Of a stretch of 64,000 nucleotides of DNA, positions 2,887 to 61,094 are shown piece after piece. The stretch covers positions 5,250 to 69,249 of the forward strand of contig JAGVYZ010000018.1 of assembly GCA_018303025.1 (NCBI GenBank), in the 5' to 3' direction. A program made the translations under genes and the position numbers. The notes below the pieces were generated by a model, which did no database searches, was not told the origin of the DNA, and saw nothing but the letters and a program-made list of their open reading frames with translations. Origin of the DNA: Candidatus Woesearchaeota archaeon (GTDB taxonomy: Archaea > Nanobdellota > Nanobdellia > SCGC-AAA011-G17 > GW2011-AR20). Numbering within the stretch: the stretch's first letter is position 1; each line of letters opens with the position of its first letter.

Positions 2887-5346
2887 ATGGCAAATGCAAA
2901 TTTTTCCCAAATAGAGAAAAAATGGCAGAAAAAATGGGAAGAAGCAAAGATTTTCAAAACAGAAAATTCTTCTAATAAGAAAAAAGTATATGTTTTAGAA
3001 ATGTTTCCCTATCCTTCTGGTTATGGCTTGCATATAGGTCATGCATTTAATTATACTATTGGCGATATTTATGCAAGATTCAAAAGAATGAATGATTTTA
3101 ATGTTCTATATCCAATGGGATATGATGCATTTGGCCTACCAGCTGAAAATGCAGCAATAAAAGCAAAAGAACATCCAAAAACATATACAGAAAATGCAAT
3201 TAAGAATTTTATTCAACAGCAAAAAATGCTGGGTTTATCTTATGATTGGTCTCGATTAATAACAACATCCTCCCCAGATTACTACAAATGGAATCAGTTT
3301 TTCTTCTTAGAATTATTAAAAAAAGGATTAGTTTACAGAAAAAAAGCAGCAGCAAACTGGTGCCCAAAATGTTCTACTGTTTTAGCAAATGAACAAGTCC
3401 ATAATGGAAAATGCTGGCGCCATGAAGATACAAAAGTAGAAATAAAGCAATTAGAACAATGGTTCATTAAAACAACAGCATACGCAGATGAATTATTAGA
3501 ATATGTTCCCAAATTAGACTGGCCAGACAGGATAAAATTAATGCAAAAAAACTGGATAGGAAAATCTTATGGTACAGAAATAGAATTCAAAATAAATAAT
3601 CAACCATGGAAAATATTTACAACAAGGCCAGATACAATTTATGGAGTTACTTTTATGGTTGTTTCTTCTTCTCATCCAAGATTAAATGAATTAACAACAA
3701 AAGAGCAAAAAAAGGAAGTTGATAAATTTTTAGAAAAAATAAAATCAACAAAAGAAGAAGATATTGCTTTATTAGAAAAAGAAGGTGCATTTACAGGTTC
3801 TTATGCAATAAACCCATTGACAAATAAAAAAATTCCTGTTTGGGTAGCTAATTTTGTTATTGCAGAATATGGTTCAGGAATGGTTATGGCAGATGCTCAC
3901 GACCAAAGAGATTTGGAATTTGCTCATAAATACAAAATAAATTTAATTGAAACTATTTTACCTGAAGATGGAAAGTCAAGCAATCCAAATAAATCAAAAC
4001 GTGCTTTTACAGATTATGGAGTTTTAGTTAATTCTGGAGAGTTTAGTGGATTAAAAAGTAAGGAAGCAATTGAAAAAATTACAAATCACTTGGAGAAATT
4101 AAATTTAGGTAAACAAAGCATCCAGTTTAAATTAAGAGACTGGCTGGTTTCAAGGCAAAGATATTGGGGAACACCTATCCCAATAATTTATTGTAAAAAA
4201 TGTGGAATTGTTCCAGAGAAAAATCTGCCTGTTAAATTACCAGAAAATGTAAAATTCGGAATAGGCAATCCATTAGAAACAAATAAAGAATTTACAGATG
4301 TAAAATGTCCAAAATGTAATTCAAATGCAAAAAGAGAAACAGACACAATGGATACTTTCTTTGATTCATCTTGGTACTTCTTTAGATTCACAGATCCAAA
4401 TAATAAAAAAGAAGCATTCAAAAAAGAAATAACAAATTACTGGCTTCCAGTAGATATGTACATTGGTGGAGCAGAGCATGCATGCATGCATTTGATTTAT
4501 GCAAGATTCTTCACAAAAGCATTAAGAGACTTAGGATATACAAAAATAAACGAACCTTTCTCTAGTTTATTCAACCAGGGTATGGTTCATGCTAATGATG
4601 GAAATAAAATGTCTAAATCATTAGGAAATGTAATTAATCCAAATGACATGATTGAAAAATATTCAGCAGATATTCTAAGATTATACTTAGTTTCAACAGC
4701 CCAGCCAGATACAGATTATGCATGGTCTGATACAGGAATAGAAGGTTCATCAAGATTCATAAATAAAGTAGTAGAATATTTTAACATAGTAAAAATAGGA
4801 AAAACAAGCAAAAAAGCAGAAAGCAAGATTAATTCAAGCATAAAAGAAATAACAAATAATATTGAATCATTCAAATATAATATAGCTGTAATTAAATTAA
4901 GGGAATTATTTGAGTCATTAGAAAATGAAACATCAAAGCAGGATTTGGAATCTTTCTTAAAATTATTATCTGTTTTCTCACCACATTTAGCAGAAGAACT
5001 ATATGAAAAACTAGGCAATAAAAGTTTTATTTCATTAGCAAAATGGCCAATAATAGATGAAAGCAAAATAGACAAAAAATTTGAAATACAAGAAAAAGCA
5101 TTAGAAACAACAATTTCAGATATTAACAATGTAATAAAAATAATCAAGGAAAAAGAAAACAAAGAGCCAACTAAAATATATCTCTATATTATACCAAATG
5201 AAAAAGACAATTACAATGAAAAAGAATTAGGTAAAAGATTGCAAAAGCAAGTAAAAGTTTTCCTAGTCAACGACAAAAATAAATACGACCCTCAAAATAA
5301 AGCATTAAAAGCAAAGCCAAACAAACCAGGAATATATTTAGAATAA
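2887..5346 (+). CDS. leuS: leucyl-tRNA synthetase, bacterial-type sequence
   Basis: 819 aa; HIGH (LHIGH) and KMSKS; blocks [43 protein letters not shown] match bacterial LeuRS. Confidence 0.95.
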
Positions 5347-5752: not shown

Positions 5753-7423
5753 ATGCCAAGAAGAAGTATAGGAAAAATACCAAGAGTAACTGCAACACCC
5801 GATATTCTACATCCAAAAGAAATAGAAATTGAAGAGGAAAATATAGAAATCATATGGGGAGGAGATGAACAAAGTATAATTAAGGGACTTGAAGGACCTA
5901 AGTTTGTTCAGGATTTAGGACTTAGTGCTGTTTTACAGAAAGGAATTGACTTAAGTACTCCAAAATGGAGAAAAAAAGACGATGATGATGGAAGGTGGGA
6001 AGCAAAAAAAAGAACAGATTTTACACAATTAGAAGCTTCAAGAATTATAAATAAAATATTTACAGCTCCAGCAGATATAGAAACAGCTAATTATAGATTG
6101 GATGTTTTTGATTACTTATTAAATAATCCCGAAGGATTTTCAAATTTTGAAAGAGTTTTCAAAAATTTAAATTCATTAATTACCCAGGGATTACAAAGAG
6201 AAAGAAGAAGTGAAGAAGATATTTGGACAAGAATTGCAAATTATGGACTTATTTTTAATATAACAGAAAATTATATTCCATTTGGAAAAAATGCTCCTGA
6301 AGCACTACAAAGAATGGATGAATATTTTGAAGCATTAAAAAAATCTCATTCTCATAGAAAGATGGGAGAACTTGCTTCTAAATTAAGCCAACCTTATGAT
6401 ATAAATTTAAGAGTAAGAGTAGATCCTACTAATCCCAATAAATATGATAATTATCCATGGGTTGTTTCTGCTTCTGTAGTAAGAGCTTCAGAATTTTCTG
6501 GAGAATTTGGAGATAAATTTAGATTAGATGAAAGATATGAATTAGATAATAATTATAAATCAAAAAAACCAGTTAGAGAAATACTTCAAAGAGCTATTGA
6601 ATTAAAATATGAAAGACATCTTAATGATACAGCAGGACATATTGCTTCTACATTAAGATTATTTGAACCAATGTTAATTTACATGGGATACTTACAATTT
6701 ATGAAGCAACAACAAGAAAGAGGAATACAATTTTCAAGACCCAAATTTGCAGAAGATGGAGAAATATTAGATGCAAAAAATCCTTTAGTTACAACAGAAC
6801 CAATAATTGGAAATGATATTAATTATAATCCAAATGATGTAGTTAGAGTTATTACTGGCCCAAATAATGGAGGAAAAACTGTTTATGTTAAAACAGTCGG
6901 AATAATTCATGCATTAGCTCAAATAGGATTTTATGTTCCATCTCCAAATGCAAGATTAAGATATATTAATAATATTTATACTCATTTTGTAAATCCAGAC
7001 GATATTGCTAATGCAGAAGGAAGATATAAAAATGAAATGAGAAGAATGGACGAAATATTCAAAGGTGTTACTCCAAATAGTTTAGTTATTCTTGATGAAC
7101 CTTGCGGAGGTACTACCATAGAATCAGGCGTCAAAATAAGTTGTGATTTTCTTAGAGCATTTGGAAGATTAAGAAATGTTACATATCTGACCACTCATAT
7201 GAGTGCAGTTGCAGATGCTGTAAGTTCTGATTCTATTCCTAGATCAAAAAATCTTCATATGCATATGCAAGATGATGGAACTCCAACTTATGAACTGAGA
7301 GAAGGAGCATCTCCCATGCATTATGGTGATTTTATTCCAAATCAAATGGGATTAGATGATAGAGCTTTATCGCGTAGATTATCTAAAAGAGCTGCTAAAG
7401 AAGGATTTCCTTTTGAAAAATGA
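5753..7423 (+). CDS. MutS-core (domain V) ATPase family protein
   Basis: Walker A GPNNGGKTVYVKT, Walker B VILDEPCGGT, downstream TTHM; no mismatch-binding or Smr domain recognised. Confidence 0.7.
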   Translation: MPRRSIGKIPRVTATPDILHPKEIEIEEENIEIIWGGDEQSIIKGLEGPKFVQDLGLSAVLQKGIDLSTPKWRKKDDDDGRWEAKKRTDFTQLEASRIINKIFTAPADIETANYRLDVFDYLLNNPEGFSNFERVFKNLNSLITQGLQRERRSEEDIWTRIANYGLIFNITENYIPFGKNAPEALQRMDEYFEALKKSHSHRKMGELASKLSQPYDINLRVRVDPTNPNKYDNYPWVVSASVVRASEFSGEFGDKFRLDERYELDNNYKSKKPVREILQRAIELKYERHLNDTAGHIASTLRLFEPMLIYMGYLQFMKQQQERGIQFSRPKFAEDGEILDAKNPLVTTEPIIGNDINYNPNDVVRVITGPNNGGKTVYVKTVGIIHALAQIGFYVPSPNARLRYINNIYTHFVNPDDIANAEGRYKNEMRRMDEIFKGVTPNSLVILDEPCGGTTIESGVKISCDFLRAFGRLRNVTYLTTHMSAVADAVSSDSIPRSKNLHMHMQDDGTPTYELREGASPMHYGDFIPNQMGLDDRALSRRLSKRAAKEGFPFEK

Positions 7424-7942: not shown

Positions 7943-7988
7943 CCAAGATAAAGAGATTACTTATTTTTATTTCTTGTGTTTTTCTTTA

Positions 7989-8047
7989 ACAGGTTCATTC
8001 TGATTTCTTTTAGTGCAGGTTTTCTTATAAAAGAAAAAGTGCCCTTA
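7989..8047 (+). repeat. family A repeat locus (CAGGTTCAT ... AGTGCAGGTT-hairpin-GTGCCCTTA)
   Basis: acaggttcattctgatttcttttagtgcaggttttcttataaaagaaaaagtgcccttat; the CCCTTA end contains the TAA stop of the minus gene ending at 8045. Confidence 0.7.
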
Positions 8048-9550
8048 TTTCTTTTCAACATGAGGTTTCCAAACTCGGGAAATTTTATCTTTTTTACTTT
8101 CCTCATCTAAAAACTTTTTAACTTTTTCAGGTAAGATTGCATCAAACTTGCTTCTCTCTTTAATCTTGTTTAATTTCTCTTTAAGTTCTTTTGTAACAAC
8201 ATCATAAAAATCAGGTTTAAAATATATTAATCCGTCTTTTATTCTTTGAAAAGCAGCACTTCCATCAGGAGCAAATACCATGTAGCCTCTTTTTCCTTGT
8301 AATAATTCAGAAAAAGTATCCATCCCAGAATAAACCCTTTTATAGTCAGCATAATAAACTCCGCCAGATTTAGAGCTAGGGTCTAATAACAATAATTCAT
8401 CACCTATAACTTCTAAGCATACAGAATAATGAGCTCTTTTAGCATTAGGAAACAAAACATTTTTCTTGTAATCCACAATAGCTAATCCTCCATCCTTAAG
8501 CCAGGATTTCAATTCTTCTCTTAAATTATATATTTTCTCAGAATCTATCCATACTCCCAAAACTTTCTCTTTAGTCAATTCTTTAACAGATTTAATTATA
8601 TCTTCAGGTTTAGTCCCAGCAGCCATATTTTCATCCTTTCTTACAATAGTTCCAGCTAATTTTCCTATTTCTTCTTGTGAATAATCAAATCCAAATATCT
8701 TCAAAATCATAGAAGCAGAAGCAGGTCCGCAATAGCTTGGATGTTGTGCAACATATTTTTCTTTTATTTTTTCTAAAGTATCAATCTTAGTAACAACCTT
8801 CTTGAAATAAAATCCTTTGTTAAAAACTTCTTTATGAGGCATAAAATAATATATTCCATCAGTTACATTCATAACAACTCCTTGAGTATTAATTTCAGTA
8901 ATTTTCATGAGTTTTTCATCAACTTGAATATACTCTCCTTTCCTAAAAAATCTATAATATTTCAAAAAAAATCCACTAAACAAGTTCACCATAGGATCCT
9001 TTAAACCAATAAAAATAAATAACAATAATAATATCAATACAGGATACAAAACATAACTCAAAAAATAAGTTATTGCACTTATGTCAACATTAGCAATCTG
9101 CAATGCAATCAATCCAAATGTAATGTAAAGTAATATTTTCAAAATATCCAAAAATATTTCAAGCAAATGTTCTTTTCCATATTCATTTACCAAGCTTATT
9201 AATCCAGCTCTTTTCAAAAATTGTTTAACTATAAAAAATATGAACTGAACTATTAAAACAACTAAAATAAAAACAAGTATTGAAGATAATATGACTGGTG
9301 CATATCTATAGAATCCTACAAATGTGTTAAAATTAAAATCAATCTGCAAAAAGCTTAATGCAATTATTATTGTAAATATATTCACCAGATAAACAACATA
9401 TTTTGCAATATTTGGTTTTTCAAGATTAGCACCATGTTTTTTTCTATAAACAGCCAATAATATCTTTTCAACAAGTTTTGATAAAAAGAATCCTAATGAA
9501 ATTATAATAAAGCTTACAAGTAGTTTAGAACTTATAGTCTCGAATGCCAT
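8045..9550 (-). CDS. membrane protein: MscS-like channel core fused to a C39-like (papain-fold) cysteine peptidase domain
   Basis: Multi-TM N-terminus; NLFSGFFLKYYRFFRKGEYIQV...ITEINTQGVVMNVTDGIYYFMPHKEVF resembles the MscS TM3/beta domain; C-terminal YCGPASASMILK...RAHYSV resembles a C39-like Cys/His pair. Confidence 0.55.
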   Translation of the reverse strand: MAFETISSKLLVSFIIISLGFFLSKLVEKILLAVYRKKHGANLEKPNIAKYVVYLVNIFTIIIALSFLQIDFNFNTFVGFYRYAPVILSSILVFILVVLIVQFIFFIVKQFLKRAGLISLVNEYGKEHLLEIFLDILKILLYITFGLIALQIANVDISAITYFLSYVLYPVLILLLLFIFIGLKDPMVNLFSGFFLKYYRFFRKGEYIQVDEKLMKITEINTQGVVMNVTDGIYYFMPHKEVFNKGFYFKKVVTKIDTLEKIKEKYVAQHPSYCGPASASMILKIFGFDYSQEEIGKLAGTIVRKDENMAAGTKPEDIIKSVKELTKEKVLGVWIDSEKIYNLREELKSWLKDGGLAIVDYKKNVLFPNAKRAHYSVCLEVIGDELLLLDPSSKSGGVYYADYKRVYSGMDTFSELLQGKRGYMVFAPDGSAAFQRIKDGLIYFKPDFYDVVTKELKEKLNKIKERSKFDAILPEKVKKFLDEESKKDKISRVWKPHVEKK

Positions 9551-9628: not shown

Positions 9629-9883
9629 CTAAACTTTTTTCTTTCCCTGTTTTTCTTCCTGAAGGTTCTTTCCTAAAGAAGCTTCCTCAGGAATAATAAC
9701 CCATGCAATAATATAAGCAATTAATGCAGCGCCAAAAGATGCAATTAGCAAAAATACAAAGATTACTCTAACAATAACAGGGTCTATTTCAAAATATTCA
9801 GCAATACCACCGCAAACCCCGCCAAAGATTTTCTCTTTATTGCTTCTATAAAGCCTTTTTACATCTTTTGCCATAAAAGACAA
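9629..9883 (-). CDS. PspC domain membrane protein
   Basis: LYRSNKEKIFGGVCGGIAEYFEIDPVIVRVIFV plus one TM; C-terminal tail EEASLGKNLQEEK encoded by a family B hairpin. Confidence 0.75.
   Translation of the reverse strand: MSFMAKDVKRLYRSNKEKIFGGVCGGIAEYFEIDPVIVRVIFVFLLIASFGAALIAYIIAWVIIPEEASLGKNLQEEKQGKKKV
9661..9685 (-). repeat. family B mismatch hairpin copy inside the PspC-like CDS
   Basis: Sense strand GAAGCTTCTTTAGGAAAGAACCTTC; 4 bp + C.C mismatch + 6 bp, loop AGG. Confidence 0.75.
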
Positions 9884-18808: not shown

Positions 18809-18848
18809 ATTTATATACTAAAATAGTTATTTTTAAAAGTTTAGTAAT

Positions 18849-18875
18849 CAGGTTCGTAAAGGGTGAAACCCTTAC
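18849..18875 (+). repeat. family A repeat copy
   Basis: caggttcgtaaagggtgaaacccttac; hairpin AAGGGT-GAA-ACCCTT. Confidence 0.75.
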
Positions 18876-19013
18876 ATGACAAACAAAAAAGTAATAATAT
18901 ACTCAATAATAGCCTTAATCTGCATTGTTTTAACCTTTACAATAAACTGGATTTTCATAGTTCCAGCTTTTATTTTAATGATTTTAAACCAAAAAGAAAT
19001 AATAAAGAAATAG
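18876..19013 (+). CDS. possible 45-aa membrane peptide
   Basis: MTNKKVIIYSIIALICIVLTFTINWIFIVPAFILMILNQKEIIKK*; below the ORF-track cutoff; starts right after a family A repeat. Confidence 0.3.
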   Translation: MTNKKVIIYSIIALICIVLTFTINWIFIVPAFILMILNQKEIIKK

Positions 19014-25461: not shown

Positions 25462-25947
25462 ATGGATTTAGCAAAAATAAATGATATCTTAGTAGATTTG
25501 TTCGTTCCAATCTTAATATTGATTTCAGCATTAATTCTAGGCAAGATATTTGAAAGACTGTCATTAAAAATAGCAGAAGAATTAGAACTAGAAAAAATAA
25601 CAAAGTTCCCAAATGAAAGAATTTCAGTAATAGTAAAATACTTAACTTATCTTGCAGGAATTATACTTGCTTTGAACCAGGCACAAATTCTATTAATATC
25701 TTTCATAATATTATTGATATTCATAGCAATATTTTTAGTAATATTATTAGGTTTAGAATTATATTACCTAATTCCTAATATAATAGCAGGAATAATCATA
25801 AAAAGAAAACTAAAATTAAACAAAAGAATAAGAATAAATAATATTCCAGGCAAAATAGTAAAGATTACCTTAAAAGAAACAATATTCCAGGCAAACAAAG
25901 AAACTCTTTATTTTCCAAATAAATTGATTTTAAAAGCAGTTTCATGA
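25462..25947 (+). CDS. small MscS-like membrane protein, apparently C-terminally truncated
   Basis: TM helices then NKRIRINNIPGKIVKITLKETIFQANKETLYFPNKLIL (start of MscS beta-domain); the TGA stop lies in a family A repeat. Confidence 0.45.
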   Translation: MDLAKINDILVDLFVPILILISALILGKIFERLSLKIAEELELEKITKFPNERISVIVKYLTYLAGIILALNQAQILLISFIILLIFIAIFLVILLGLELYYLIPNIIAGIIIKRKLKLNKRIRINNIPGKIVKITLKETIFQANKETLYFPNKLILKAVS

Positions 25948-26118
25948 AGGTTTGAACCAGGTTCATGAAGGGCGTTTTTGTTTTTCTTTCCTGAAGTGTT
26001 AAACTCGTTTAACATTAGAAGAGCTTGACTCTTCTTTGGTTTCTTTCGTAAAGAAAGCTTCGCAGGGTCATAAGGGGTGCAAATTTTTAGGCAGGTTCAT
26101 GAAGGGTGCAACCCTTAT
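25937..26118 (+). repeat. cluster of family A repeats plus a family B-like module between convergent genes
   Basis: cagtttcatgaagg (25937), ccaggttcatgaagggcg (25957), gcagggtcataagggg (26062), gcaggttcatgaagggtgcaacccttat (26091-26118); tttctttcctgaag...hairpin between them. Confidence 0.75.
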
Positions 26119-27080
26119 CATTTTAGCATTTCAACAACTTCTTTTATTATTCTTACAGTCATTTCAGGATACCAAGTAGCTAAAAACTCGCAAACTTCAA
26201 TTTCCACAATTAATTTTTCCTGCATAGGAAACAATTTTCTTTTAGGTCCTAAAGCTAAACTCCCATCAAAAACTTCTTCTAATGTAATTCTAGGCAAAGG
26301 AGAGTTCTCAATAGCACTCCTGGCAGCATCTAAATAAGATACAGGTGCAAAATCCTTGTTCATTCTTTTGAACATAAAATCATTTGAATATTTTTTTATT
26401 ACTTTCATATCACTCAAATAAGAGTTTCTTAAATCCAAAGACATTTCATTTAAGTTAAACTTATTATATTTCCTTAAGGTATTTACAACCATTCTTTCTG
26501 TTTCAAGCATAACCATCTGCTTGTACATTTTATTAACTTCCTTGAAAAAATCATAATAAGCCCTATTCACATAATTTAAGATATTTTTTATCATTACCTT
26601 CTCAAGACCTTTGCCTTTGAAAGTAATAAAATCAATCACAGAAGGCATTCCTTTTATCCTGTTATATGCTCTATGGATTAAAAGGACTGTTTGCGCATTC
26701 TCGCATTCACTCCAGAAGTTTTGATATATTCTTAGTCTATGATAATAGTCATTTTCATCAAAAGCAACAAAAGCATATTTTCTCATATAATCCAATTTAA
26801 ACAAAGTATCTTCATTATCTAAAAATTTAGCATAAGATTCTAAAGCAACTTTCAATTCAGGAATATCTCGATTAAAATCAACACCATATAGCCTTCTTCT
26901 AGGCATGTTTCCTAAAACTAATTTACCTTTGTATTCATTTCTTAATAAGCTTCCAATAGTATCAGAATTATCATCTCTTCCATTAGAATTAATCAAGGAA
27001 GGTCCAGAATGAGGGCACATGATTAATGGCTCTTCATTATCCTTGTAAATAATAAAACCTCTTTTAAACTCACTTATCAT
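26118..27080 (-). CDS. hypothetical protein, possible N-formylglutamate amidohydrolase-fold enzyme
   Basis: CPHSGP ... DDNSD ... RRRLYGVDFNRD resembles the FGase family HxG / D / DxNR pattern; weak. Confidence 0.4.
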   Translation of the reverse strand: MISEFKRGFIIYKDNEEPLIMCPHSGPSLINSNGRDDNSDTIGSLLRNEYKGKLVLGNMPRRRLYGVDFNRDIPELKVALESYAKFLDNEDTLFKLDYMRKYAFVAFDENDYYHRLRIYQNFWSECENAQTVLLIHRAYNRIKGMPSVIDFITFKGKGLEKVMIKNILNYVNRAYYDFFKEVNKMYKQMVMLETERMVVNTLRKYNKFNLNEMSLDLRNSYLSDMKVIKKYSNDFMFKRMNKDFAPVSYLDAARSAIENSPLPRITLEEVFDGSLALGPKRKLFPMQEKLIVEIEVCEFLATWYPEMTVRIIKEVVEMLK

Positions 27081-27585: not shown

Positions 27586-27600
27586 AAATATATTCTTAAA

Positions 27601-27675
27601 AATATATATTAAAAGGCAAGGGTAAAGGACAAACACCTTTAGAAAGTTTATAAATAACAAATGATTACAATGTAG
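27601..27675 (+). promoter_or_regulatory. conserved upstream element U1 + TATA box
   Basis: AATATATATTAAAAGGCAAGGGTAAAGGACAAACACC then TTTATAAATA; AGGACAAA ends 43 nt before the ATG. Confidence 0.7.
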
Positions 27676-31531: not shown

Positions 31532-31590
31532 ATAATTTCCCAAAAAATGAAAGTTTATAAAAATAGAGGTTGATATCCAAAAGATTTCTG

Positions 31591-31673
31591 CAGGTTCGTA
31601 AAGATGGATTTGGGTTCGTGAAGGGAGAATCCCTTACTCTTAGTGCAGGTTCTTCCTAAGAAAGTGCCCTTAC
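31591..31673 (+). repeat. family A repeat locus
   Basis: caggttcgtaaag; gggttcgtgaagggagaatcccttac (hairpin AAGGGA-GAA-TCCCTT, 31621-31635); agtgcaggttcttcctaagaaagtgcccttac containing the TAA stop of the gene ending at 31670. Confidence 0.75.
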
Positions 31674-35817: not shown

Positions 35818-35892
35818 AGAAAAAATAAGTAAAAATAATATATAAATGCGGCGCGCGCATTTGTCCTGTAAACCTACCTTTTAATATATATT
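35818..35892 (-). promoter_or_regulatory. conserved upstream element U3 + TATA box
   Basis: Sense strand AATATATATTAAAAGGTAGGTTTACAGGACAAATGCGCGCGCCGCATTTATATATT...; AGGACAAA ends 43 nt before the ATG; contains the GC island 35848-35858. Confidence 0.7.
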
Positions 35893-35918
35893 TTAAAAAA
35901 TATATTAATGTTACCACT

Positions 35919-37785: not shown

Positions 37786-37941
37786 ACCTTTAGCTTTTTT
37801 CCAAAATGCTTTTTCTTTAGCGTAGGTTTCTAAATGCTTCTTTTTTGGTGTAGCTTTTTTCTAATGCTTCTTTTTTAGTGTAGCTTTTTTCTAATGTTTC
37901 TTTTTTAGTGCAGGTTTTTTCTTTTCAAAGAAAAAAAGTGC
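37786..37941 (+). repeat. tandem array of about 30-bp units next to the tRNA-Leu 3' end
   Basis: Units at 37818, 37847, 37877 (AGTGTAGCTTTTTTCTAATGCTTCTTTTTT), a degenerate unit near 37786, and a last unit at 37907 that is a family A AGTGCAGGTT-hairpin-GTGC module. Confidence 0.75.
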
Positions 37942-38094
37942 TGCGGGAAACAGGGCTTTCGGAAGTTCTTTTCTTTTCAAGGAGTTCTTTTCCCTGAAGG
38001 CTTTTCTTACAAGAAAAGGCTTCGTTCGAACCTGCGTAGGCACTAAGCCACTAGGTCCTAAGCCTAGCCCGTTTGACCACTCCGGCATTCCCGC
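37942..38094 (-). tRNA. tRNA-Leu(UAG) with 69-nt T-loop intron
   Basis: Acceptor GCGGGAA/TTCCCGC+A, anticodon arm CTAGG-CTTAGGA-CCTAG, long variable arm, T stem GCAGG/CCTGT. Confidence 0.85.
37955..38023 (-). other. tRNA-Leu(UAG) intron at position 59/60 (or 60/61)
   Basis: GAAGCCTTTTCTTGTAAGAAAAGCCTTCAGGGAAAAGAACTCCTTGAAAAGAAAAGAACTTCCGAAAGC between TTCGAAC and CCTGT. Confidence 0.8.
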
Positions 38095-40443: not shown

Positions 40444-40530
40444 TTTTATCTTGATTAATTTATAAAATACGGTTTTTAAACCTTTGCTTCAAAAAAATAA
40501 AGGCATTTTTGGGATTAATATATAGTCTAA

Positions 40531-40605
40531 AATATATATTAAAAGGTAGGGTTACAGGACAAACACCCTCGTGGAGTATTTAAATAGAATTTACTTCTTC
40601 TATCT
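40531..40605 (+). promoter_or_regulatory. conserved upstream element U2 + TATA box
   Basis: AATATATATTAAAAGGTAGGGTTACAGGACAAACACC then TATTTAAATA; AGGACAAA ends 43 nt before the ATG. Confidence 0.7.
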
Positions 40606-41788: not shown

Positions 41789-42202
41789 TTATACACGACG
41801 ACCACGTCTAAAATGTTTTTTGCGACACCCATCATGAGGGAGAGGTGTAACATCTTCTATGTTTCCAATTCTAAAACCTTCTCTTGATAATGTTCTAACA
41901 GCAGCTTGTGCACCAGGTCCTGGATTATTAGGTCCATTGTGTCCACCAGGTGCTTTTATTCTAATATGTAAAGCATTAATACCATGTTCTCTTGCTAAGT
42001 CAGCTGCTTTTTTAGAAGCCATCATAGCAGCAGTTGGACTGCTTTCAAGTCTATGAATTTTAACAACCATACCACCAGAAGTTCTTGCTATTGTCTCACT
42101 CCCAGTAATATCAGTAATATGAATAATTGTATTGTTATAACTAGAATAAATATTAGCTATTCCCCATCTTAATTCAGGTCTTTTTATAGGAGTTTCATTC
42201 AT
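41789..42202 (-). CDS. rps11: 30S ribosomal protein S11 (uS11)
   Basis: [19 protein letters not shown]...; C-terminal ...[11 protein letters not shown]. Confidence 0.92.
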
Positions 42203-42247
42203 TTTTTATTTTCCCTTGAGGCTTTTTTAAAAAGGCTCATTTCATTC
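42203..42247 (-). repeat. family B hairpin element filling the S4-S11 intercistronic spacer
   Basis: Sense strand ATGAGCCTTTTTAAAAAAGCCTCAAGGGAAAATAAAAAATG; hairpin core 42218-42238. Confidence 0.8.
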
Positions 42248-42968
42248 ATTTTTTAGCCTCTTCTTTTTTTGCAGGTTTCTCTTTTTTTGTTTTTTCTTCC
42301 TGAAGGTTCTTTTTTAAAGAAGCTTCTTTATCTTCTTTTTTTTCAAAAGTTTTCTTAGGTTTTTCTTCCTTATGGGATTCTTCTTTTTTCTCTTCCTTAT
42401 TTATTTTCCCTGAATTTTTTCTTTCTCCCTGAAGGCTCTTTCCTAAAGAGGCTTCAACTTTAGGTCTTTCAGGATGATCTTCTTTATTAAAAGCAGATTT
42501 AGGGTTATAATTAATTTTCCCTCTTTCACTTTGCATGACTAAATAAGAAGGAACAGTAACTTTCTGTCCATTTACACTAATATGTCCATGAACAATTAAT
42601 TGTCTTGCCTGATTTGCTGTTTTAGCTAAACCAGCCTTGTAAACAATTGATTGCAATCTTAAGTTCATAATATCGTTTAAAGTTAAACCTAATATAGTAT
42701 CTAAATCAGATTTTTCAGTTAATAATCCTAATTTAACTAATCTATCAACAAGTTGTTTTTTCTCTTTTTCACCTTGTTCACTATCATCATATAATAAGAC
42801 TTTAGCTTGTCCTCTTATTTTGCTTAAGAGAGAATTCATTTTCCAGATTTCATTTTTTCTCTTCAAGCCAAATTCAATAGCTAATGCTTTATCATGTTCA
42901 ATCCTTGCTCTTTGCCAAGGATGATTAGGAGTTTCATACTTTTTTCTGAATTTTCTTGCTAATCCCAT
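42246..42968 (-). CDS. rps4: 30S ribosomal protein S4 (uS4) with long Lys/Glu-rich C-terminal extension
   Basis: MGLARKFRKKYETPNHPWQ..., S4 domain LQSIVYKAGLAKTANQARQLIVHGHISVNG; about 70 extra C-terminal residues containing two hairpin repeats. Confidence 0.9.
   Translation of the reverse strand: MGLARKFRKKYETPNHPWQRARIEHDKALAIEFGLKRKNEIWKMNSLLSKIRGQAKVLLYDDSEQGEKEKKQLVDRLVKLGLLTEKSDLDTILGLTLNDIMNLRLQSIVYKAGLAKTANQARQLIVHGHISVNGQKVTVPSYLVMQSERGKINYNPKSAFNKEDHPERPKVEASLGKSLQGERKNSGKINKEEKKEESHKEEKPKKTFEKKEDKEASLKKNLQEEKTKKEKPAKKEEAKK
42302..42326 (-). repeat. family B mismatch hairpin copy inside the S4 tail
   Basis: Sense GAAGCTTCTTTAAAAAAGAACCTTC, translated EASLKKNLQ. Confidence 0.8.
42431..42455 (-). 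repeat. family B mismatch hairpin copy inside the S4 tail
   Basis: Sense GAAGCCTCTTTAGGAAAGAGCCTTC, translated EASLGKSLQ. Confidence 0.8.
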
Positions 42969-42971
42969 TTT

Positions 42972-43015
42972 GTTTTTTATTTTCCCTTGAGGCTTTTTTA
43001 AAAAGGCTCATTTTA
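42972..43015 (-). repeat. family B hairpin element filling the S13-S4 intercistronic spacer
   Basis: Sense AATGAGCCTTTTTAAAAAAGCCTCAAGGGAAAATAAAAAACAAAATG; core 42989-43009, identical to 42218-42238. Confidence 0.8.
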
Positions 43016-43519
43016 TTATTTTTTCCCCTTTCCACCTTTATCGCTGGTTGGTGCTGGTTTTGCAGCTTTTCCAGGTACAGCTTTTTTCTTTTGTACACCA
43101 ATAGACCTTCCTTTTCTGAAGTGACTCTTTGTTTTTTGTCCTCTCACTGGCTGGTCAATTGCATGTCTTAATCCTCTTCTTGACCTTACTTTTTGTAATC
43201 TTTTAATATCAAAATCTCTTGTTAATCTTACTTCAGAAGATAATACATGTAAATTTTTTCCTGTTTCAATGTCATTTCTTCTGTTTAACATCCAAGTTGG
43301 AATTTTTTCAGAAGGATTAGCTAATAATTCTTCTAATGCTTTTATTTTTTCAGGGCTTAATTCTCCTAATTTTCCATGTGGATCTAAATGCAAAACATTG
43401 CATATTGCATTAGAGAACATAAAACTAATTCCTTTGATTTTTGTCAAGCCATGAAAAACCTTTAATCTACCGTCTAAATCAGTATTTCTTATCCTTACAA
43501 TTGCTCTCATTTCACTCAT
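43016..43519 (-). CDS. rps13: 30S ribosomal protein S13 (uS13)
   Basis: MRAIVRIRNTDLDGRLKV...; the track ORF starts at a TTG, so ATG 43519 is preferred; basic C-terminal tail. Confidence 0.9.
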   Translation of the reverse strand: MSEMRAIVRIRNTDLDGRLKVFHGLTKIKGISFMFSNAICNVLHLDPHGKLGELSPEKIKALEELLANPSEKIPTWMLNRRNDIETGKNLHVLSSEVRLTRDFDIKRLQKVRSRRGLRHAIDQPVRGQKTKSHFRKGRSIGVQKKKAVPGKAAKPAPTSDKGGKGKK

Positions 43520-44060: not shown

Positions 44061-44103
44061 AAAATTTAAGAATATAAAAAAACTTAAAAGCTTATCTGTA
44101 GGA

Positions 44104-44131
44104 GGGTTCATAAAGGGTGTTAAACCCTTAT
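44104..44131 (+). repeat. family A repeat copy
   Basis: gggttcataaagggtgttaaacccttat; hairpin AAGGGT-GTTAA-ACCCTT. Confidence 0.75.
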
Positions 44132-44133
44132 CC

Positions 44134-44679
44134 TTACTGACCTACAAATAAGTAATATCTATCTTCATTATTTAATTCAGCTAGAATTCTTCTTTTAACT
44201 GTTTTTTCAGGATCAGGCATTAATTTAACTCTATTCCTTATGTCTTCAAAACTTTCAAATAATTTCTCATCTCTTTGTTCAATAACTTCCCACATATGCT
44301 TCTTTCCAACACCAGGCAATAATTCAAGCTGGTGCATTCTAGTGCTTAATGGTCCGCATTTATTAAAAAATGAAACAAACTTAGCTTCATTTTCTTTAAT
44401 AATCTCCTCAATAATAATATCTAACTCATGTTTGGCAGTAGAAGTTAATTTAGTATAAGGAATTCTTCCAATAATATGATGTACCTGGTCTCTTTTTCCA
44501 TCCCCAATATAAACTTCATCATGAGGCTGTAAAAATATATCTTTTTTAGGAACTAACTCTAAAAGAATAAAATTTGTTCTACCAACAGCCTGTACAATAG
44601 GCATTTTTCTGAAAGAAGGATCTAATGGATAACCATTCTGTAAAAAGTCTAATACTAGGGCGTTTTCTTCTTTTATCAT
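44134..44679 (-). CDS. DUF655 family RNA-binding protein (OB-like + helix-hairpin-helix)
   Basis: ALVLDFLQNGYP..., ...HQLELLPGVGKKHMWEVIEQR; usual archaeal position next to RpoF/L21e. Confidence 0.75.
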   Translation of the reverse strand: MIKEENALVLDFLQNGYPLDPSFRKMPIVQAVGRTNFILLELVPKKDIFLQPHDEVYIGDGKRDQVHHIIGRIPYTKLTSTAKHELDIIIEEIIKENEAKFVSFFNKCGPLSTRMHQLELLPGVGKKHMWEVIEQRDEKLFESFEDIRNRVKLMPDPEKTVKRRILAELNNEDRYYLFVGQ

Positions 44680-46156: not shown

Positions 46157-46492
46157 TTAACTAACCTTCATCTCTTTTAAGTATTTATCAACTAACTCAT
46201 CAACAAGTAAAAGATTTATATTTTCATAACCCTTGTTTATTCTTAATTTTAGCTCAGAATTAACTTTGTTTATGATTTTTCTTTTAATTTCTTCAATATC
46301 CGTTTCAGGCAAACTCCTGTTTACAGGATTTATCTTTTCCCTGTATTTTTTTGCAATTTCACTGCTATTCCTGATTTCTTTATTATAGGCTTGGGAGATC
46401 TCTTCTTTATCTATTGCCTTTTCAAGAACTTCATGAATAACTGCATTTGCAAGATTTGAGATAAATGCCTCAGTAAGTTTGTTTCTGTTCAT
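46157..46492 (-). CDS. hypothetical helical protein
   Basis: 111 aa; the start codon follows a family B spacer element. Confidence 0.4.
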   Translation of the reverse strand: MNRNKLTEAFISNLANAVIHEVLEKAIDKEEISQAYNKEIRNSSEIAKKYREKINPVNRSLPETDIEEIKRKIINKVNSELKLRINKGYENINLLLVDELVDKYLKEMKVS

Positions 46493-46540
46493 TTTTCTTT
46501 TTCCCTTGAGGCTTTTTCTTAAAAAGGCTCATTCTGTTCA
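46493..46540 (-). repeat. family B hairpin element spanning a stop codon and spacer
   Basis: Sense AATGAGCCTTTTTAAGAAAAAGCCTCAAGGGAAAAAGAAAAATG; its first part encodes ...NEPF* of the upstream gene; core 46508-46530. Confidence 0.8.
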
Positions 46541-47325
46541 TTTATTTTCTCCAAAATAGTCTTAAAGGTTTTATTATAAACTTCCTTATATTTCTTTAAA
46601 AAATCATTTTTAACCATATTTTCCTTTAATTCATTTATATTAATCTTACATAATTCTTCAATTTTTTTATTAACTATTTCTCTATTTAGTTTTTTCCCAG
46701 AAATAAATAAAAGAATAGCTACCATATTAAAAGTCAGATAATATTTTTCTTTCCCATTCAAAAGCTCAAAACCATCAATTAAAGATTTGCTTTTTAATAA
46801 ATTCAAATCAAGAAGCTTATAATTAATGTTTCTTTTAATCCTAAATATAATCCTTTCTTTAGAAACACATTTGCTTAGCATTAAACTATATAATGGGTCT
46901 ATTGATAAACCCGAAAGCAGTTCATTTTTACTAATTACAATAATATGGGTTTTTATTCCAGTTAAACTTTCTATCTTATTTTTAATTAAGCTTACATCAA
47001 TTTTTTTATCATCAATAATCAATATATCCAAGTCATTAAAACTAAATCCTTTTTCAAGAAAAGAGCCAGTAATAATTATATTCTCAGGATTAATCTCTTT
47101 ATTAACCAAATTAAAAACTTCTTCAATTATTCTTGTTTTTATTGGTTCAAGATTTTTTACATTGTAAAAATAAGGCTTAATTCTTTTTCCATCTTCCTTC
47201 TCAGAATTTAATCTTTCCAAAGGCATTATTGTAACATACTGCCCAATAGAAAAACCAGCCCTGTTTTTTGGAATGTAAACCTGGTCCATTCTGCTCCCTT
47301 TGCTTATTCTGCTTATAATTTCCAT
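46519..47325 (-). CDS. nucleotidyltransferase-domain protein with N-terminal AbrB/SpoVT-like segment
   Basis: MDQVYIPKNRAGFSIGQYVTIMPL (AbrB-like, tentative); minimal NTase motif ITGSFLEKGFSFNDLDILIIDD. Confidence 0.55.
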   Translation of the reverse strand: MEIISRISKGSRMDQVYIPKNRAGFSIGQYVTIMPLERLNSEKEDGKRIKPYFYNVKNLEPIKTRIIEEVFNLVNKEINPENIIITGSFLEKGFSFNDLDILIIDDKKIDVSLIKNKIESLTGIKTHIIVISKNELLSGLSIDPLYSLMLSKCVSKERIIFRIKRNINYKLLDLNLLKSKSLIDGFELLNGKEKYYLTFNMVAILLFISGKKLNREIVNKKIEELCKININELKENMVKNDFLKKYKEVYNKTFKTILEKINEQNEPF

Positions 47326-57203: not shown

Positions 57204-57335
57204 TTATAAAAACTAAATAAAAATCACCTTAAAAAACTTATCTTTTGCACATATATTTTCATTCTGATTCTTTTTGCTCATAACTTTTTCTTTCTTTTGT
57301 TTTAAGTTCTTTTGATCATAAACTTTTCCAACGTA

Positions 57336-57421
57336 CCAGGTTCGTAAAGGGTGCGCAGGTTCATTTTCTTAGCGCAGGTTCTTTCTAAGAAAGTGCGGTT
57401 CGTGAAGGGAGAATCCCTTAC
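57336..57421 (+). repeat. family A repeat locus (three copies)
   Basis: ccaggttcgtaaagggtgcgcaggttcatttt; agcgcaggttctttctaagaaagtgcggttcgtgaagggagaatcccttac; the CCCTTAC end holds the TAA stop of uppS. Confidence 0.75.
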
Positions 57422-58128
57422 TTGCCAAATCTTCTTTCCCTATCACTATAGTCAATTAAAGCAGCTTTAAAATCTTCTTTAGAAAATTCAGGCCATAAAT
57501 GATCAACCCAGTAAATTTCAGCATAGCTTCCCTGCCATAATAAAAATCCAGAAAGTCTTTTCTCTCCCCCAGTTCTTATTATCAAATCAGGCTCACTCTC
57601 AAGATAAATGTTTTTCTTGAAAACTTCTTCATTAATATCATTAACATCTAAGCTTCCATTTTTAACAGCTTCTGCAATTTTTTTAGTAGCATCAATAATC
57701 TCAGTTCTTCCACCATAAGCCATTGCGAAATTAATTATAAAATTAGTATTATTTTTAGTCTTCTCAATAATTAAATGTATTTTTTCCTGTATATCTTTTG
57801 CAAACATCCATGTTCTTCCAATGATATTTATTCTAATTCCTTCCTTCATTAATCTTTCATCATCTCTTAATTTGTCAAATTCTTTTCTGAATATATCCAT
57901 TAAAAAGTTAAATTCTTCTTTTGGTCTGTTAAAATTTTCAACAGAAAAAGCATACAAAGTTAATTCTTTAACCTTAAATTCCTTGCACCAATTAAGGACA
58001 TTTTCTATTTTATTTGCCCCCCATTCATGCCCTTTCCAGGGTTTAAGGGTTAATCTTCTAGCAAATCTCCTATTTCCGTCCATTATTATGCCAATATGTT
58101 TTGGAATTTTGTTTTCAGTTGGATTCAT
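57418..58128 (-). CDS. uppS: undecaprenyl/di-trans,poly-cis-prenyl diphosphate synthase (cis-prenyltransferase)
   Basis: HIGIIMDGNRRFA, ...IRTGGEKRLSGFLLWQ..., ERRFG. Confidence 0.9.
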   Translation of the reverse strand: MNPTENKIPKHIGIIMDGNRRFARRLTLKPWKGHEWGANKIENVLNWCKEFKVKELTLYAFSVENFNRPKEEFNFLMDIFRKEFDKLRDDERLMKEGIRINIIGRTWMFAKDIQEKIHLIIEKTKNNTNFIINFAMAYGGRTEIIDATKKIAEAVKNGSLDVNDINEEVFKKNIYLESEPDLIIRTGGEKRLSGFLLWQGSYAEIYWVDHLWPEFSKEDFKAALIDYSDRERRFGK

Positions 58129-60732: not shown

Positions 60733-60759
60733 ACCTTTTTAAACTAATTTCTTTCTTTT

Positions 60760-60835
60760 AGTGTAGGTTTTCCCTTTACAGGTTCGTGAAGGGTGGAACC
60801 CTTACGCGGGTTCATAAAGGGTGCCAAACCCTTAT
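60760..60835 (+). repeat. family A repeat locus abutting tRNA-Leu(CAA)
   Basis: agtgtaggttttccctttacaggttcgtgaagggtggaacccttacgcgggttcataaagggtgccaaacccttat, followed directly by GCGGGAA of the tRNA. Confidence 0.75.
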
Positions 60836-60963
60836 GCGGGAATGCCGGAGTGGTCAAACGGGGTAGACTCAAAATCTACTGGCTTAGTGCCTACGCAGGT
60901 TCGAACGAAGCCTTTTCTTGTAAGAAAAGCCTTCAGGGAAAAGAACTCCTTGAAAAGAAAAGA
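60836..60963 (+). tRNA. tRNA-Leu(CAA) 5' exon (60836-60906) plus intron start; 3' exon not found in the window
   Basis: 71-nt exon identical to tRNA-Leu(UAG) except for a fully compensated anticodon arm (GTAGA-CTCAAAA-TCTAC); the next 57 nt are identical to the Leu(UAG) intron, then diverge; no CCTGYTTCCCGCA downstream. Confidence 0.6.
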
Positions 60964-61094
60964 TTTTCTGGACCTAAGAAAACAAAAGTTTTCTTTGGAA
61001 AAAGAAGCATTGAATTCAACTTAATTCAGGTTTAGCAATAATTATAAATTCAAAAAATATTAAATTAAAGAAGGTGAAAAAAAGGGTAAATTCT

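Follow-up and report, generated by a model that had tools for sequence, protein, structure and literature searches.

Groundwater archaea with small genomes in the Woesearchaeota group carry a hairpin-forming DNA repeat of 25 to 36 bases that is spread genome-wide, and the orientation of this repeat is independent of the neighboring genes and follows the gene-independent GC and AT skew of the chromosome. In a 64-kb stretch of a Candidatus Woesearchaeota MAG (the window), we found seven full copies and about 10 partial units, or "heads," all on the + strand and at a density of about one locus per 7 kb; the family motif is (A)GCRGGTTC-RT(R)AAGGGW-loop-WCCCTT-AY. A search of the window with GGTTCRTRAAGGG, allowing at most one mismatch, gave nine matches, all on the + strand, against a chance expectation of 0.11. 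A covariance model applied without filters recovered the seven full copies on the + strand and none on the minus strand at E<0.1, and the 7-mer CAGGTTC occurs 22 times on the + strand and 3 times on the minus strand. When the stretch was lengthened to about 82 kb of the same genome, nine repeat loci were present, with the + sense in all. The first-pass annotation had proposed a real, strand-biased, modular repeat family whose copies all read on the + strand whatever the orientation of the flanking genes, and this is borne out. The repeat was also found at more than 112 metagenome loci, mostly of 27 to 32% GC and not from the same species as the window. Scanning with the motif gave no matches in viral contigs and singletons only in contigs of GTDB representative genomes. 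An Rfam search of the window returned tRNA and 5S only, with no family matching the repeat, and positions 60600-61200 gave a partial tRNA alone at E<=1.

Each unit consists of a conserved, single-stranded head, (TTTT)AG(C/TG)R-GGTTC, followed by an imperfect hairpin in which a 1-nt bulge separates 2 bp from 6 bp: two outer pairs (R-Y and T-A), one bulged purine, and six inner pairs (AAGGGW/WCCCTT), with a loop of GNA type (GCA, GAA, or GGA) or GNNAA. Arrays are head-to-tail, with 3'-truncated heads upstream of one complete unit; the partial heads in the window start at 7984, 25937, 25958, 26063, 31585, 57331, and 57355. All of the following features are on the + strand. A partial head without hairpin (CAGGTTCAT..; 7984..8009; 12 bits with the covariance model) is followed by module B (8010..8048), made up of TTAGTGCAGGTT, a T/A-rich hairpin, and GTGCCCTTAT. 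Full copies are found at 18843..18878 (49.8 bits; G-C outer pair, loop GAA) and at 44097..44134 (39.9 bits; pentaloop GTTAA), the latter between the stop of a DUF655 gene (44134) and the ATG of the next minus-strand gene (44109-44111, inside TTCAT). The cluster at 25937-26118, previously described as four copies, is in fact one full copy (26086..26121; 48 bits; A-T outer pair, loop GCA) and three partial heads, two at 25937..25975, of which the first is degenerate, and one of a second subfamily (CAGGGTCATAAGGGGT) at 26063..26085. Three other small hairpins, GTGTTAAAC..GTTTAACA, AGAAGAG..CTCTTCT, and CTTTCGTAAAGAAAG, occupy 25990..26062 in this inserted cluster; the first of them was found again in another species, joined to a head. 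Another locus comprises a partial head (31585..31611), a full copy with a compensated stem top, GGGA/TCCC (31605..31640; 44.2 bits), and module B (31641..31673). A module B copy at 37905..37942 is flush with the 3' end of the minus-strand gene for tRNA-Leu(UAG), and three 30-nt tandem units (37833-37922) stand before it. Two partial heads and a module B unit form an array at 57331..57396, with a full copy of the GGGA/TCCC type at 57389..57424 (38.1 bits). A degenerate module-B-like head (TTTAGTGTAGGTTTTCCCTTTA; 60757..60778) and a tandem of two full copies at 60773..60838 (60773-60808 and 60809-60838; 43.9 and 30.4 bits) make up the last locus; the tandem ends exactly at position +1 of the tRNA-Leu(CAA) gene (60836).

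In 83 distinct copies drawn from many related metagenome contigs, pairing in the 8-bp bulged hairpin reaches 99.8%, and four stem pairs show compensatory changes, including pairs 14-35 (54 GC, 27 AU), 22-28 (51 UA, 18 CG, 11 AU, 2 GC), and 21-29 (76 GC, 7 AU). Covariation at the observed level appeared in 0 of 500 shuffles, and slid partners pair in at most 55%. The compensated AAGGGA/TCCCTT variants reported earlier at 31621-31635 and 57405-57419 are present; an additional covarying pair, which had been missed, links R6 to the Y that follows CCCTTA. All seven window copies have G-C or A-T at this pair, which numbers 49 G-C, 25 A-T, and 3 other among 77 unique copies (Fisher p=8e-18) and varies independently of the stem-top type. 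We conclude that the hairpin is under selection as a nucleic acid structure. The DNA could instead be conserved through protein function, as a coding motif (peptide xGFVKGA..L): 18 copies lie in the open frame of ORFs of at least 150 aa, and several ribosomal proteins include the translated motif. The window copies, however, all lie between genes or antisense to them, stop codons interrupt two of the three + frames of the repeat (one is open), codons explain neither the R6/Y nor the stem covariation, and a triloop in place of a pentaloop shifts the frame (TLT versus KPL); this explanation can be set aside with near certainty.

The repeat had been proposed to sit on gene ends and to supply stop codons, a description that suits the window. 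Read in antisense, six of its seven loci come immediately after minus-strand genes, and three overlap the stop codon. Three minus-strand genes take the TAA inside RTAAGGG as their stop, those ending at 8045 (gene 8045..9550; module B TTA at 8045-8047), 31670 (a tRNA_edit gene, three residues shorter than its ortholog in locus L141; module B TTA at 31670-31672), and 57418 (an undecaprenyl-diphosphate synthase gene; TTA at 57418-57420 of the full copy). These three assignments stood; the fourth, for the minus-strand gene at 26118..27080, did not, as this gene has a native TGA (26118-26120) that adjoins CCCTTA and is outside the motif. The TGA of the + strand MS-channel gene (25945-25947) does fall within the repeat, as claimed, but inside a degenerate head. 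Elsewhere, the stop of the minus-strand gene ending at 44134 is 2 nt away from the repeat, and the site at 18872 provides the stop of a doubtful minus-strand ORF or, alternatively, the ATG, at 18876 directly after CCCTTAC, of a plausible 45-aa + strand membrane peptide.

A larger sample of 78 copies does not bear out a role at gene ends: the repeat adjoins gene starts as often as gene ends, with 18+5 copies located inside ORFs. Downstream genes number 24 in the sense of the repeat and 23 in the opposite sense, upstream genes 23 and 29, respectively, and for the 47 intergenic copies the neighboring gene is equally often in the same and in the opposite sense. A terminator or 3'-untranslated-region reading, which fits the window, was rejected because these 78 copies show no link to gene sense; nor, in either sense, does a T-run follow the hairpin, as it would in an intrinsic terminator. 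The broader idea of the first-pass annotation, an RNA-level element of the adjacent genes acting as a 3'-end terminator, stabilizer, or processing site, can draw on the six window loci and on the ribosomal-protein operon of a relative, where all copies are in gene sense and often 6 nt ahead of the ATG. It is nevertheless most unlikely, given the even split of neighbor sense, the occurrence of both orientations within tRNA introns, an orientation that stays coherent across tens of kilobases despite mixed gene directions, and the lack of a U-tract and of an Rfam match. On our best reading the supply of stop codons is incidental; the stops (TRA in TTCRTRAA, TAG in TTTTAG, and TAA in RTAAGGG) and occasional starts would simply come with landing inside or against gene ends.

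Copies are tolerated at sites where harm is small, namely, tight intergenic spacers, tRNA introns, and protein termini or loops. Within tRNA introns they are found in the minus sense in two metagenome loci (L114 and L039) and in the plus sense in a third (L040). A relative has in-frame copies in L22 (both termini), the L32e tail, L3, the L24 tail, and the prefoldin N terminus, mostly outside the Pfam domains, and the resulting peptide is xGFVKGA..; further in-frame copies were identified in DHH and PTA genes. Comparison of L060 with L066 provides an ortholog without the in-frame insert. The combination of gene edges, tRNA introns, and in-frame ribosomal-protein sites therefore points to the behavior of selfish DNA and not to a gene-end signal.

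Comparison of relatives showed that copies are gained and lost between orthologous loci. The entire 170-nt cluster at 25948-26117 is absent from the orthologous locus of a relative that is 86% identical at the protein level (L139), where the two convergent genes overlap by 9 nt and a native TGA terminates the 320-aa protein at the identical codon. Sites both filled and empty, together with differing array sizes, were also found among L052, L060, and L066 and between L061 and L101; two loci that are 99.6% identical (L093 and L129) differ by a 14-nt half-unit indel, and a syntenic relative has 0 copies in 21 kb. The REP- or MITE-like behavior suggested earlier is thus supported. At filled versus empty sites the right edge is sharp at CCCTTAY, the left end and the target are inconsistent, and we found no terminal inverted repeats (TIRs) or target-site duplication; the half-unit indels are flanked by CCTTAT direct repeats. 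An IS630-like element that is polymorphic in the same species was considered as the source of the repeat and rejected; it has a TA duplication, and its TIRs are unrelated to the motif.

The first-pass annotation had also derived the repeat from tRNA. The head GCAGGTTCG is identical to the 5' T-stem plus T-loop of tRNA-Leu, and in the window the tRNA-Leu(UAG) and tRNA-Gly(UCC) genes have T-loop introns of canonical structure (helix, 3-nt bulge, 4-bp helix, 3-nt bulge, helix) that begin with GAAG followed by a hairpin, as the repeat unit does. A mobile bulge-helix-bulge (BHB) intron, or a T-arm-derived retro-element, processed by the tRNA splicing endonuclease would accommodate these resemblances, the copies within tRNA introns, and the similarity of the "mismatch hairpin" (D1) repeats to the first 40 nt of the tRNA-Leu intron. 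The unit itself forms no BHB, however, because its bulge is 1 nt and it has no CGAA strand to pair with UUCG; the BHB motif fits the real T-loop introns only. In addition, the intron copies are in both orientations, most copies lie outside RNA genes, the in-frame copies are evidently kept in their ORFs and not spliced, and the common sequence amounts to about 9 nt, from the tRNA motif that is most conserved. We give a tRNA origin, which is unproven, very little credence, slightly less than an RNA-level role. The proposed unity with the D1 family is plausible, since a ..TGAAGG head precedes a hairpin in each and D1 is like the start of the tRNA-Leu intron, but it is not demonstrated. Fujishima et al. 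reportedly described, in 2010, tRNA-intron transposition of archaeal BHB introns in Thermoproteales. The repeat resembles these in that related short sequences are dispersed among tRNA genes, and differs in the features just given. The T-loop introns are polymorphic in the window's organism.

What does organize the repeat is the strand. On contigs of 15 to 64 kb all copies point one way (13/13, 4/4, 4/4, 3/3, and 7/7), and 107 heads have the same sense versus 2 with the opposite sense. Gene-corrected GC3 skew is negative in 28 of 30 motif-oriented contigs; an assumption-free version is negative in 19 of 21 (p=2.2e-4), with the opposite sign in two, and AT3 skew is positive in 17 of 21. Within the window the skew is negative in all eight 8-kb bins. 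Orientation thus follows strand asymmetry, a correlation that the first-pass annotation had suggested checking. The direction of ribosomal-protein operons gave conflicting indications of which strand is leading: a large ribosomal-protein cluster is in motif sense in one genome, and S13-S4-S11 is antisense in the window. A single reversed copy in contig Ga0208375_1000754, an in-frame insert in a DHH gene, was considered as an orientation switch marking an origin and rejected, there being no orc1/cdc6 gene and no change of skew. We infer that the skew reflects the direction of replication. The leading strand usually has G>C, and by this rule the + sense would be lagging-strand sequence (the leading-strand template), with the complementary sense on the lagging-strand template.

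This strand asymmetry, in 19 of 21 contigs, together with the density of loci in the window and the retention of head and hairpin shape across many genomes, is what a polar chromosome signal beneficial to the host would produce, that is, an archaeal counterpart of Chi, KOPS, Ter, or lagging-strand priming sites read on one strand by a replication, repair, or segregation protein. We think this improbable. The 21-kb syntenic relative does without any copy and close relatives differ in presence and absence, degenerate partial units and arrays are common, insertions fall in ribosomal-protein coding sequence, and the known signals are short oligomers mostly within genes, not hairpin arrays.

A stronger alternative, though still rather unlikely, is that polarity arises by differential survival and not by strand-specific insertion. 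Copies in either orientation would arise by slippage, gene conversion, or an ordinary transposase, to be deleted when the stabler hairpin strand (the + sense, with sheared G.A loops) is on the lagging-strand template and expanded into arrays when it is the nascent lagging strand. Triplet repeats show orientation-dependent instability of the same kind. The placement of the + sense on the lagging-strand sequence by the standard rule is as expected, G..A loops occur in the + sense only, the arrays and the half-unit indels with CCTTAT direct repeats resemble slippage products, and no transposase was found in the window or in the approximately 0.6 Mb sampled. On the other hand, nearest-neighbor DNA stability is predicted to be equal on the two strands (-4.4 kcal/mol for each), the hairpin is short and weak, and neither spread to distant new loci nor the conserved single-stranded 5' head is explained.

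The explanation that we favor, with about even confidence, is that these are selfish, non-autonomous, lineage-specific small repeats of Woesearchaeota-like DPANN archaea whose orientation is coupled to replication, as the skew suggests. If the skew marks replication direction, a strand-specific process acting on single-stranded DNA at the replication fork would generate or preserve copies, and within it a protein may read the bulged hairpin and its single-stranded flank much as Y1/HUH enzymes recognize REPs and the ends of IS200/IS605. Both excision and insertion of IS200/IS605 elements use the lagging-strand template, and binding of TnpA-REP needs the 5' flank of the REP and a stem irregularity (PMC6006769, PMC3333891). 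Subclass 1.1 TnpA does occur in Archaea, and REP/RAYT systems have been reported in Bacteria only (PMC6006769). A Pfam search of about 70 window ORFs revealed no Y1/HUH transposase, RAYT, or other mobilizing enzyme, and tblastn with IS608 TnpA found no Y1 transposase or RAYT in about 0.6 Mb of motif-bearing loci.

Among known systems, REP/BIME (REPIN) sequences with their RAYTs share several traits with the repeat: they are numerous, clustered imperfect palindromes of 25 to 40 nt whose stem has an irregularity and whose single-stranded 5' flank is conserved, and they are mostly extragenic at gene ends and divided into subfamilies with compensated stems (PMC3333891). The flank of the REP is GTAG, whereas that of the Woesearchaeota repeat is GCRGGTTC, without GTAG and analogous in position only. 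Several points count against our reading: REP/BIME form inverted doublets and the repeat forms head-to-tail arrays; the + sense, if it is the recognized, active strand, would sit by the skew rule on the leading-strand template, opposite to IS608; the ends and target lack clear definition; one contig has a reversed copy and two have the opposite skew sign; and neither the window nor the 0.6 Mb sampled yielded an enzyme. Unlike REPs, the repeat also occurs in frame in genes, appears from the skew to be strongly replication-polar, and has no RAYT that we could find in the DNA sampled. With IS200/IS605 and the PATE mini-elements derived from them, which transpose as single strands by "peel and paste," it has in common strand-specific hairpin recognition (presumed for the repeat), a lack of terminal inverted repeats and obvious target duplications, and an orientation tied to replication direction (judged, for the repeat, by skew); it differs in having no tnpA or tnpB nearby or in the 0.6 Mb sampled and in its undefined ends and target tetranucleotide. 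MITEs and Correia-type elements are likewise small, non-autonomous, and numerous, occupy gene boundaries, and are able to provide genes with stop or start codons, but have the terminal inverted repeats and target-site duplications that the repeat lacks. Integron attC sites (PMC5371416) are likewise imperfect hairpins bearing extrahelical bases and acting in single-stranded form (as presumed for the repeat), at gene 3' ends in one shared orientation and with sensitivity to the replication strand. The repeat has no GTTRRRY/RYYYAAC core, cassettes, or integrase, and its neighbors are housekeeping genes. Rickettsia palindromic elements (RPE), said to have been described by Ogata et al. in 2000 as bacterial and about 100 to 150 bp, are longer and unrelated in sequence. 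Like the repeat, they are short palindromic selfish elements, intergenic as well as in frame in conserved protein genes, and add peptide segments at tolerant positions. We know of no replication polarity described for RPE.

A bolder version, which we consider unlikely, is that the repeats represent an undescribed DPANN class of replication-polar hairpin elements, either mobilized from single-stranded DNA at the fork by an enzyme not related to the known Y1 transposases or co-opted as an archaeal strand-orienting chromosome signal. If so, either version would give a ready marker of replication direction where origins are hard to map, and in this lineage the elements would, besides, alter the termini of ribosomal proteins and give rise to, or embellish, non-canonical tRNA introns.

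The reduced genomes of DPANN archaea are usually considered repeat-poor, and this would be the first REP- or RPE-like repeat system documented in them. The repeat explains several oddities of annotation, among them borrowed stop and start codons, spurious GTG ORFs starting within the motif, and intron-containing tRNAs overlooked by standard tools. In uncultivated archaea, the link between orientation and skew would serve as an easy guide to replication direction, origins, and termini. The in-frame copies in L22, L32e, L3, L24, and prefoldin would mean that selfish DNA reshapes the most conserved proteins of an ultra-small genome.

Seven full copies of the strand-polar hairpin repeat, all on the + strand, were recovered when a covariance model built from 53 copies was run on the window without filters; nothing comparable was found on the minus strand. 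With at most one mismatch allowed, GGTTCRTRAAGGG matched the window nine times, always on the + strand (0.11 matches expected). The seven repeat loci listed in the first-pass annotation were borne out: they hold the full copies, partial heads (CAGGTTCRT.. lacking the 3′ arm, the head being the conserved 5′ part of the unit) and a second module, module B, consisting of AGTGCAGGTT, a T/A-rich hairpin and GTGC(CCTTA). A further 9 kb of the same genome on either side added two loci, both in + sense (GGTTC...CCCTTA), which gives nine loci in about 63 kb. The window has a G+C content of 28% and carries archaeal housekeeping genes, including S13-S4-S11-RpoD, L18e-L13-S9-RpoN, LeuRS and ELP3. A protein identical to the 320-aa protein beside the repeat cluster at 25937-26118 is carried by a Candidatus Woesearchaeota MAG, and the species is found again in many groundwater metagenomes.

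The unit reads (TTTT)AG(C/TG)R-GGTTC, RT(R)AAGGGW, a loop, and WCCCTTAY. Two more pairs extend the AAGGGW/WCCCTT stem, one between the position-6 purine and the pyrimidine that follows CCCTTA and one between T and A, so that one purine is left bulged. The hairpin is under selection. Across 77 unique copies the position-6 outer pair was G-C in 49, A-T in 25 and something else in 3 (Fisher p=8e-18), and it covaried independently of the stem-top variant. In 83 distinct copies collected by the model, standard pairs made up 99.8% of cells and double changes occurred at four of the eight hairpin pairs; none of 500 shuffles reached the observed covariation, and shifted partners paired in at most 55%. 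Loops in + sense are GCA, GAA, GGA or GNNAA, and a second subfamily, CAGGGTC-RT(A)AGGGG..CCCCTAY, has the same architecture. Folding is weak, at about -7 kcal/mol for RNA and -4.4 for DNA of either strand, and Rfam yielded no family matching the unit.

A pattern scan found at least 112 motif loci in metagenome contigs; among the matches listed, most have 27-32% G+C and no DNA similarity to the window, and thus belong to other species. A scan of one genome per species returned singletons only, including some from Woesearchaeota, Pacearchaeota and Altiarchaeota, and a scan of viral contigs gave no motif match. In an Altiarchaeota MAG, GGTTCATGAAGGGGCGAAGCCCCTTAT occurs at 3380-3590 and 6990-7175 of locus L014 within a segment of ~85 nt that separates a complete tRNA from a repeat of the same tRNA's last ~23 nt, an arrangement found again at a second tRNA gene 3.6 kb away. 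A Woesearchaeota MAG (L016) has the identical 27-mer, with a longer stem extending to GTTCAT/ATGAAC.

Copies are gained and lost between orthologous loci. At L139, where the ortholog of the 320-aa protein (minus strand, 26118..27080) is 86% identical, the convergent gene pair has a 9-nt overlap, and the 170-nt cluster 25948-26117 is absent as a whole; the end codon and native TGA of the 320-aa protein are identical in both. The original end of the MS-channel gene lay in the overlap, and its stop in the window, at 25947 (+), is a TGA within a degenerate head. The tRNA-editing protein, with its TAA in module B, falls 3 residues short of its ortholog in a more distant relative (L141), in which no copy was found across a 21-kb syntenic stretch. 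Among L052, L060 and L066, from other species, orthologous sites that carry the repeat in one lack it in another, and same-site arrays differ in unit number and type (L061 and L101); copies form head-to-tail arrays. One 99.6%-identical contig pair differs by a single 14-nt half unit with CCTTAT repeats at its bounds. Repeat loci are identical among strains of the window species, so turnover is slower than strain divergence. The earlier description as a strand-biased, mosaic, REP/MITE-like repeat was right.

Three strain contigs (L022, 12548-13610; L025; L026) carry an IS630-like element (HTH + DDE_3; 1,063 bp) with a TA target duplication, which the window lacks at 22721/22722. The six remaining contigs of the species all contain 36 nt (29594/29595) and 69 nt (23774/23775) of coding sequence that are missing from the window, and comparable 63-71-nt indels, with no flanking repeats, occur in the near-identical contig pairs L027/L028, L036/L079 and L065/L096. 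Such indels resemble assembly artefacts or the work of an unexplained deletion process.

Unit orientation is independent of the direction of transcription. Intergenic copies have the downstream gene in the same sense in 24 cases and in the opposite sense in 23; for the upstream gene the counts are 23 and 29. In 20 of 47 cases a gene boundary is found no more than 13 nt from the CCCTTAY end; for the head end the count is 6 of 52, because truncated heads pile up on that side. The sites are those expected of insertions that persist wherever they do no harm; with spacers of 0-50 nt, such sites lie against or just inside gene ends, and since TRA, TAG and TAA triplets stand in three of the six frames, the element often supplies the stop. 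Clear cases in the window number three (8045, 31670 and 57418). The gene-end and stop-codon function proposed by the first-pass annotation is not supported, given the even split of downstream gene senses and the ortholog at L139, which ends at the same codon without the repeat. Directly after one CCCTTAC is the ATG of a 45-aa hydrophobic ORF (MTNKKVIIYSIIALICIVLTF..; 18876-19013, +), which overlaps in antisense a 50-aa minus-strand gene of public annotations and looks the more protein-like of the two.

Genes themselves are also invaded, with 23 of 78 non-redundant copies inside ORFs of at least 150 aa, 18 of these in the same sense. The large ribosomal-protein cluster of a related species (contig Ga0209210_1000985, covering L112, L062, L119 and L091) contains about 13 copies, all in the genes' sense, and several are translated in a single fully open frame as xGFVKGATL or xGFVKGAKPL: at the N- and C-termini of ribosomal protein L22, three to four times in the tail of L32e, within L3, in the tail of L24 and at the N-terminus of prefoldin. 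All but the one in L3 lie outside Pfam domains, and locus L060 has an L22 ortholog without the N-terminal insert. DHH-family and phosphotransacetylase genes are likewise interrupted in frame. The repeat is possibly a polar signal beneficial to the host, but the ribosomal-protein insertions, the degenerate units and the patchy distribution all fit that poorly.

A tRNA origin had also been suggested. The head, GCAGGTTCG, is the 5′ T-stem and T-loop of the window's tRNA-Leu genes. Position 59/60 is interrupted by T-loop introns in tRNA-Leu(UAG) (37942-38094, -; 69 nt, 37956-38024) and tRNA-Gly(UCC) (57040-57203, -; 91 nt, 57054-57144), and neither gene was detected by ARAGORN or by Rfam at gathering threshold. 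The tRNA-Leu(UAG) intron is predicted to fold into a canonical helix, bulge, 4-bp helix (UUCG/CGAA), bulge motif, with the T-loop UUCG pairing with CGAA at the intron 3′ end. The intron begins with GAAG and a hairpin, like the unit after its head, and its first 40 nt resemble D1, a further hairpin repeat specific to the window. The likeness is suggestive of common ancestry or of a common target (GGTTCR). The unit cannot form the tRNA splicing motif, however, and the common string is short, so a tRNA derivation is unsupported and we treat it as unproven. Copies also occur within tRNA introns, antisense in tRNA-Gly(GCC) (37/38 intron, L114) and tRNA-Lys(CUU) (L039) and sense in a T-loop intron (L040), and at L099 one lies directly 3′ of a tRNA end.

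In the window, the 3′ exon of tRNA-Leu(CAA) (60836-60960) and the module B after it give way to ~52 nt from the start of the tRNA-Leu(UAG) intron, so that the gene would be non-functional; an intact gene with no intron occurs in three further contigs of this species (L120, L145, L146). Either the two tRNA-Leu loci have recombined or the source MAG is chimeric here through assembly. The stretch from tRNA-Leu(UAG), with its module B, to a cyclophilin gene holds three tandem 30-nt units (AATGCTTCTTTTTTRGTGTAGCTTTTTTCT; 37833-37922) ending with TTTTAGTGYAGG, the sequence that precedes repeat heads.

Two other hairpin families each keep one orientation: D1 (9646-9687, 42287-42328, 42416-42457, 46492-46533, 49254-49295) and D3 (ATGAGCCTTTTTAAAAAAGCCTCAAGGGAAAATAAAAA; 42202-42253, 42973-43024, 46494-46545). 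D1 is read in frame, as ..SLGKxLQxEKK, within an ELP3-like gene and in the C-terminal tail of ribosomal protein S4; D3 lies directly upstream of the starts of S4, S11 and one further gene, where it might specify a leader peptide of 12 aa. An element of ~70 nt (..TAAAAATATATATTAAAAGGYARGGKTAMAGGACAAACACC..; 27587-27656, +; 40517-40586, +; about 35840-35918, -), conserved and also found in L111, stands upstream of genes for a Bro-N protein, a 387-aa HTH_3 protein and a 412-aa protein with C-terminal HTH domains, possibly as a promoter and leader common to all three, or as a small RNA.

Unit orientation depends instead on strand asymmetry. On contigs of 15-64 kb all copies run one way, however the nearby genes are oriented (13/13, 4/4, 4/4, 3/3 and 7/7), and heads number 107 in the same sense versus 2 opposite. 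Comparison with GC skew, a check suggested earlier, showed that orientation follows skew. Contigs were motif-oriented, and third-position skew on the motif strand was measured separately for + and - genes and then averaged, to part coding from non-coding asymmetry. Among 21 non-redundant contigs having both gene classes (11 flipped, 10 not), mean GC3 skew was negative in 19 (p=2.2e-4) and AT3 skew positive in 17; a pooled coding correction gave 28/30 and 26/30 contigs, respectively. GC skew is negative in every one of the window's eight 8-kb bins. A single reversed copy on one contig, an in-frame insert, coincides with no skew change. Gene-independent skew over tens of kilobases is a replication-strand signature, and the leading strand usually has G>C and T>A, as in bacterial and Pyrococcus/Methanothermobacter work. 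By this rule, the + sense would lie on lagging-strand sequence; ribosomal-protein operon direction gives conflicting hints on which strand leads.

The closest worked-out precedents for a single-strand process at the fork are IS200/IS605 elements and REPs, in which a Y1/HUH protein reads an imperfect hairpin and a short single-stranded flank on one strand only, with IS200/IS605 excision and insertion taking place on the lagging-strand template (PMC6006769, PMC3333891). REP/RAYT systems have been reported from Bacteria only (PMC6006769). Unlike REPs, our repeat has no GTAG and no inverted doublets; no defined element ends or target were found, and a search of the window and of ~0.6 Mb of motif-bearing DNA turned up no Y1 gene. 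An alternative that needs no transposase is orientation-dependent hairpin instability: a hairpin on the lagging-strand template would be deleted, and one on the nascent lagging strand would expand. Polarity and arrays would follow from this too, but the spread to new loci would go unexplained. We infer that strand-specific handling of single-stranded DNA at the replication fork would drive this repeat, the family of which appears undescribed.
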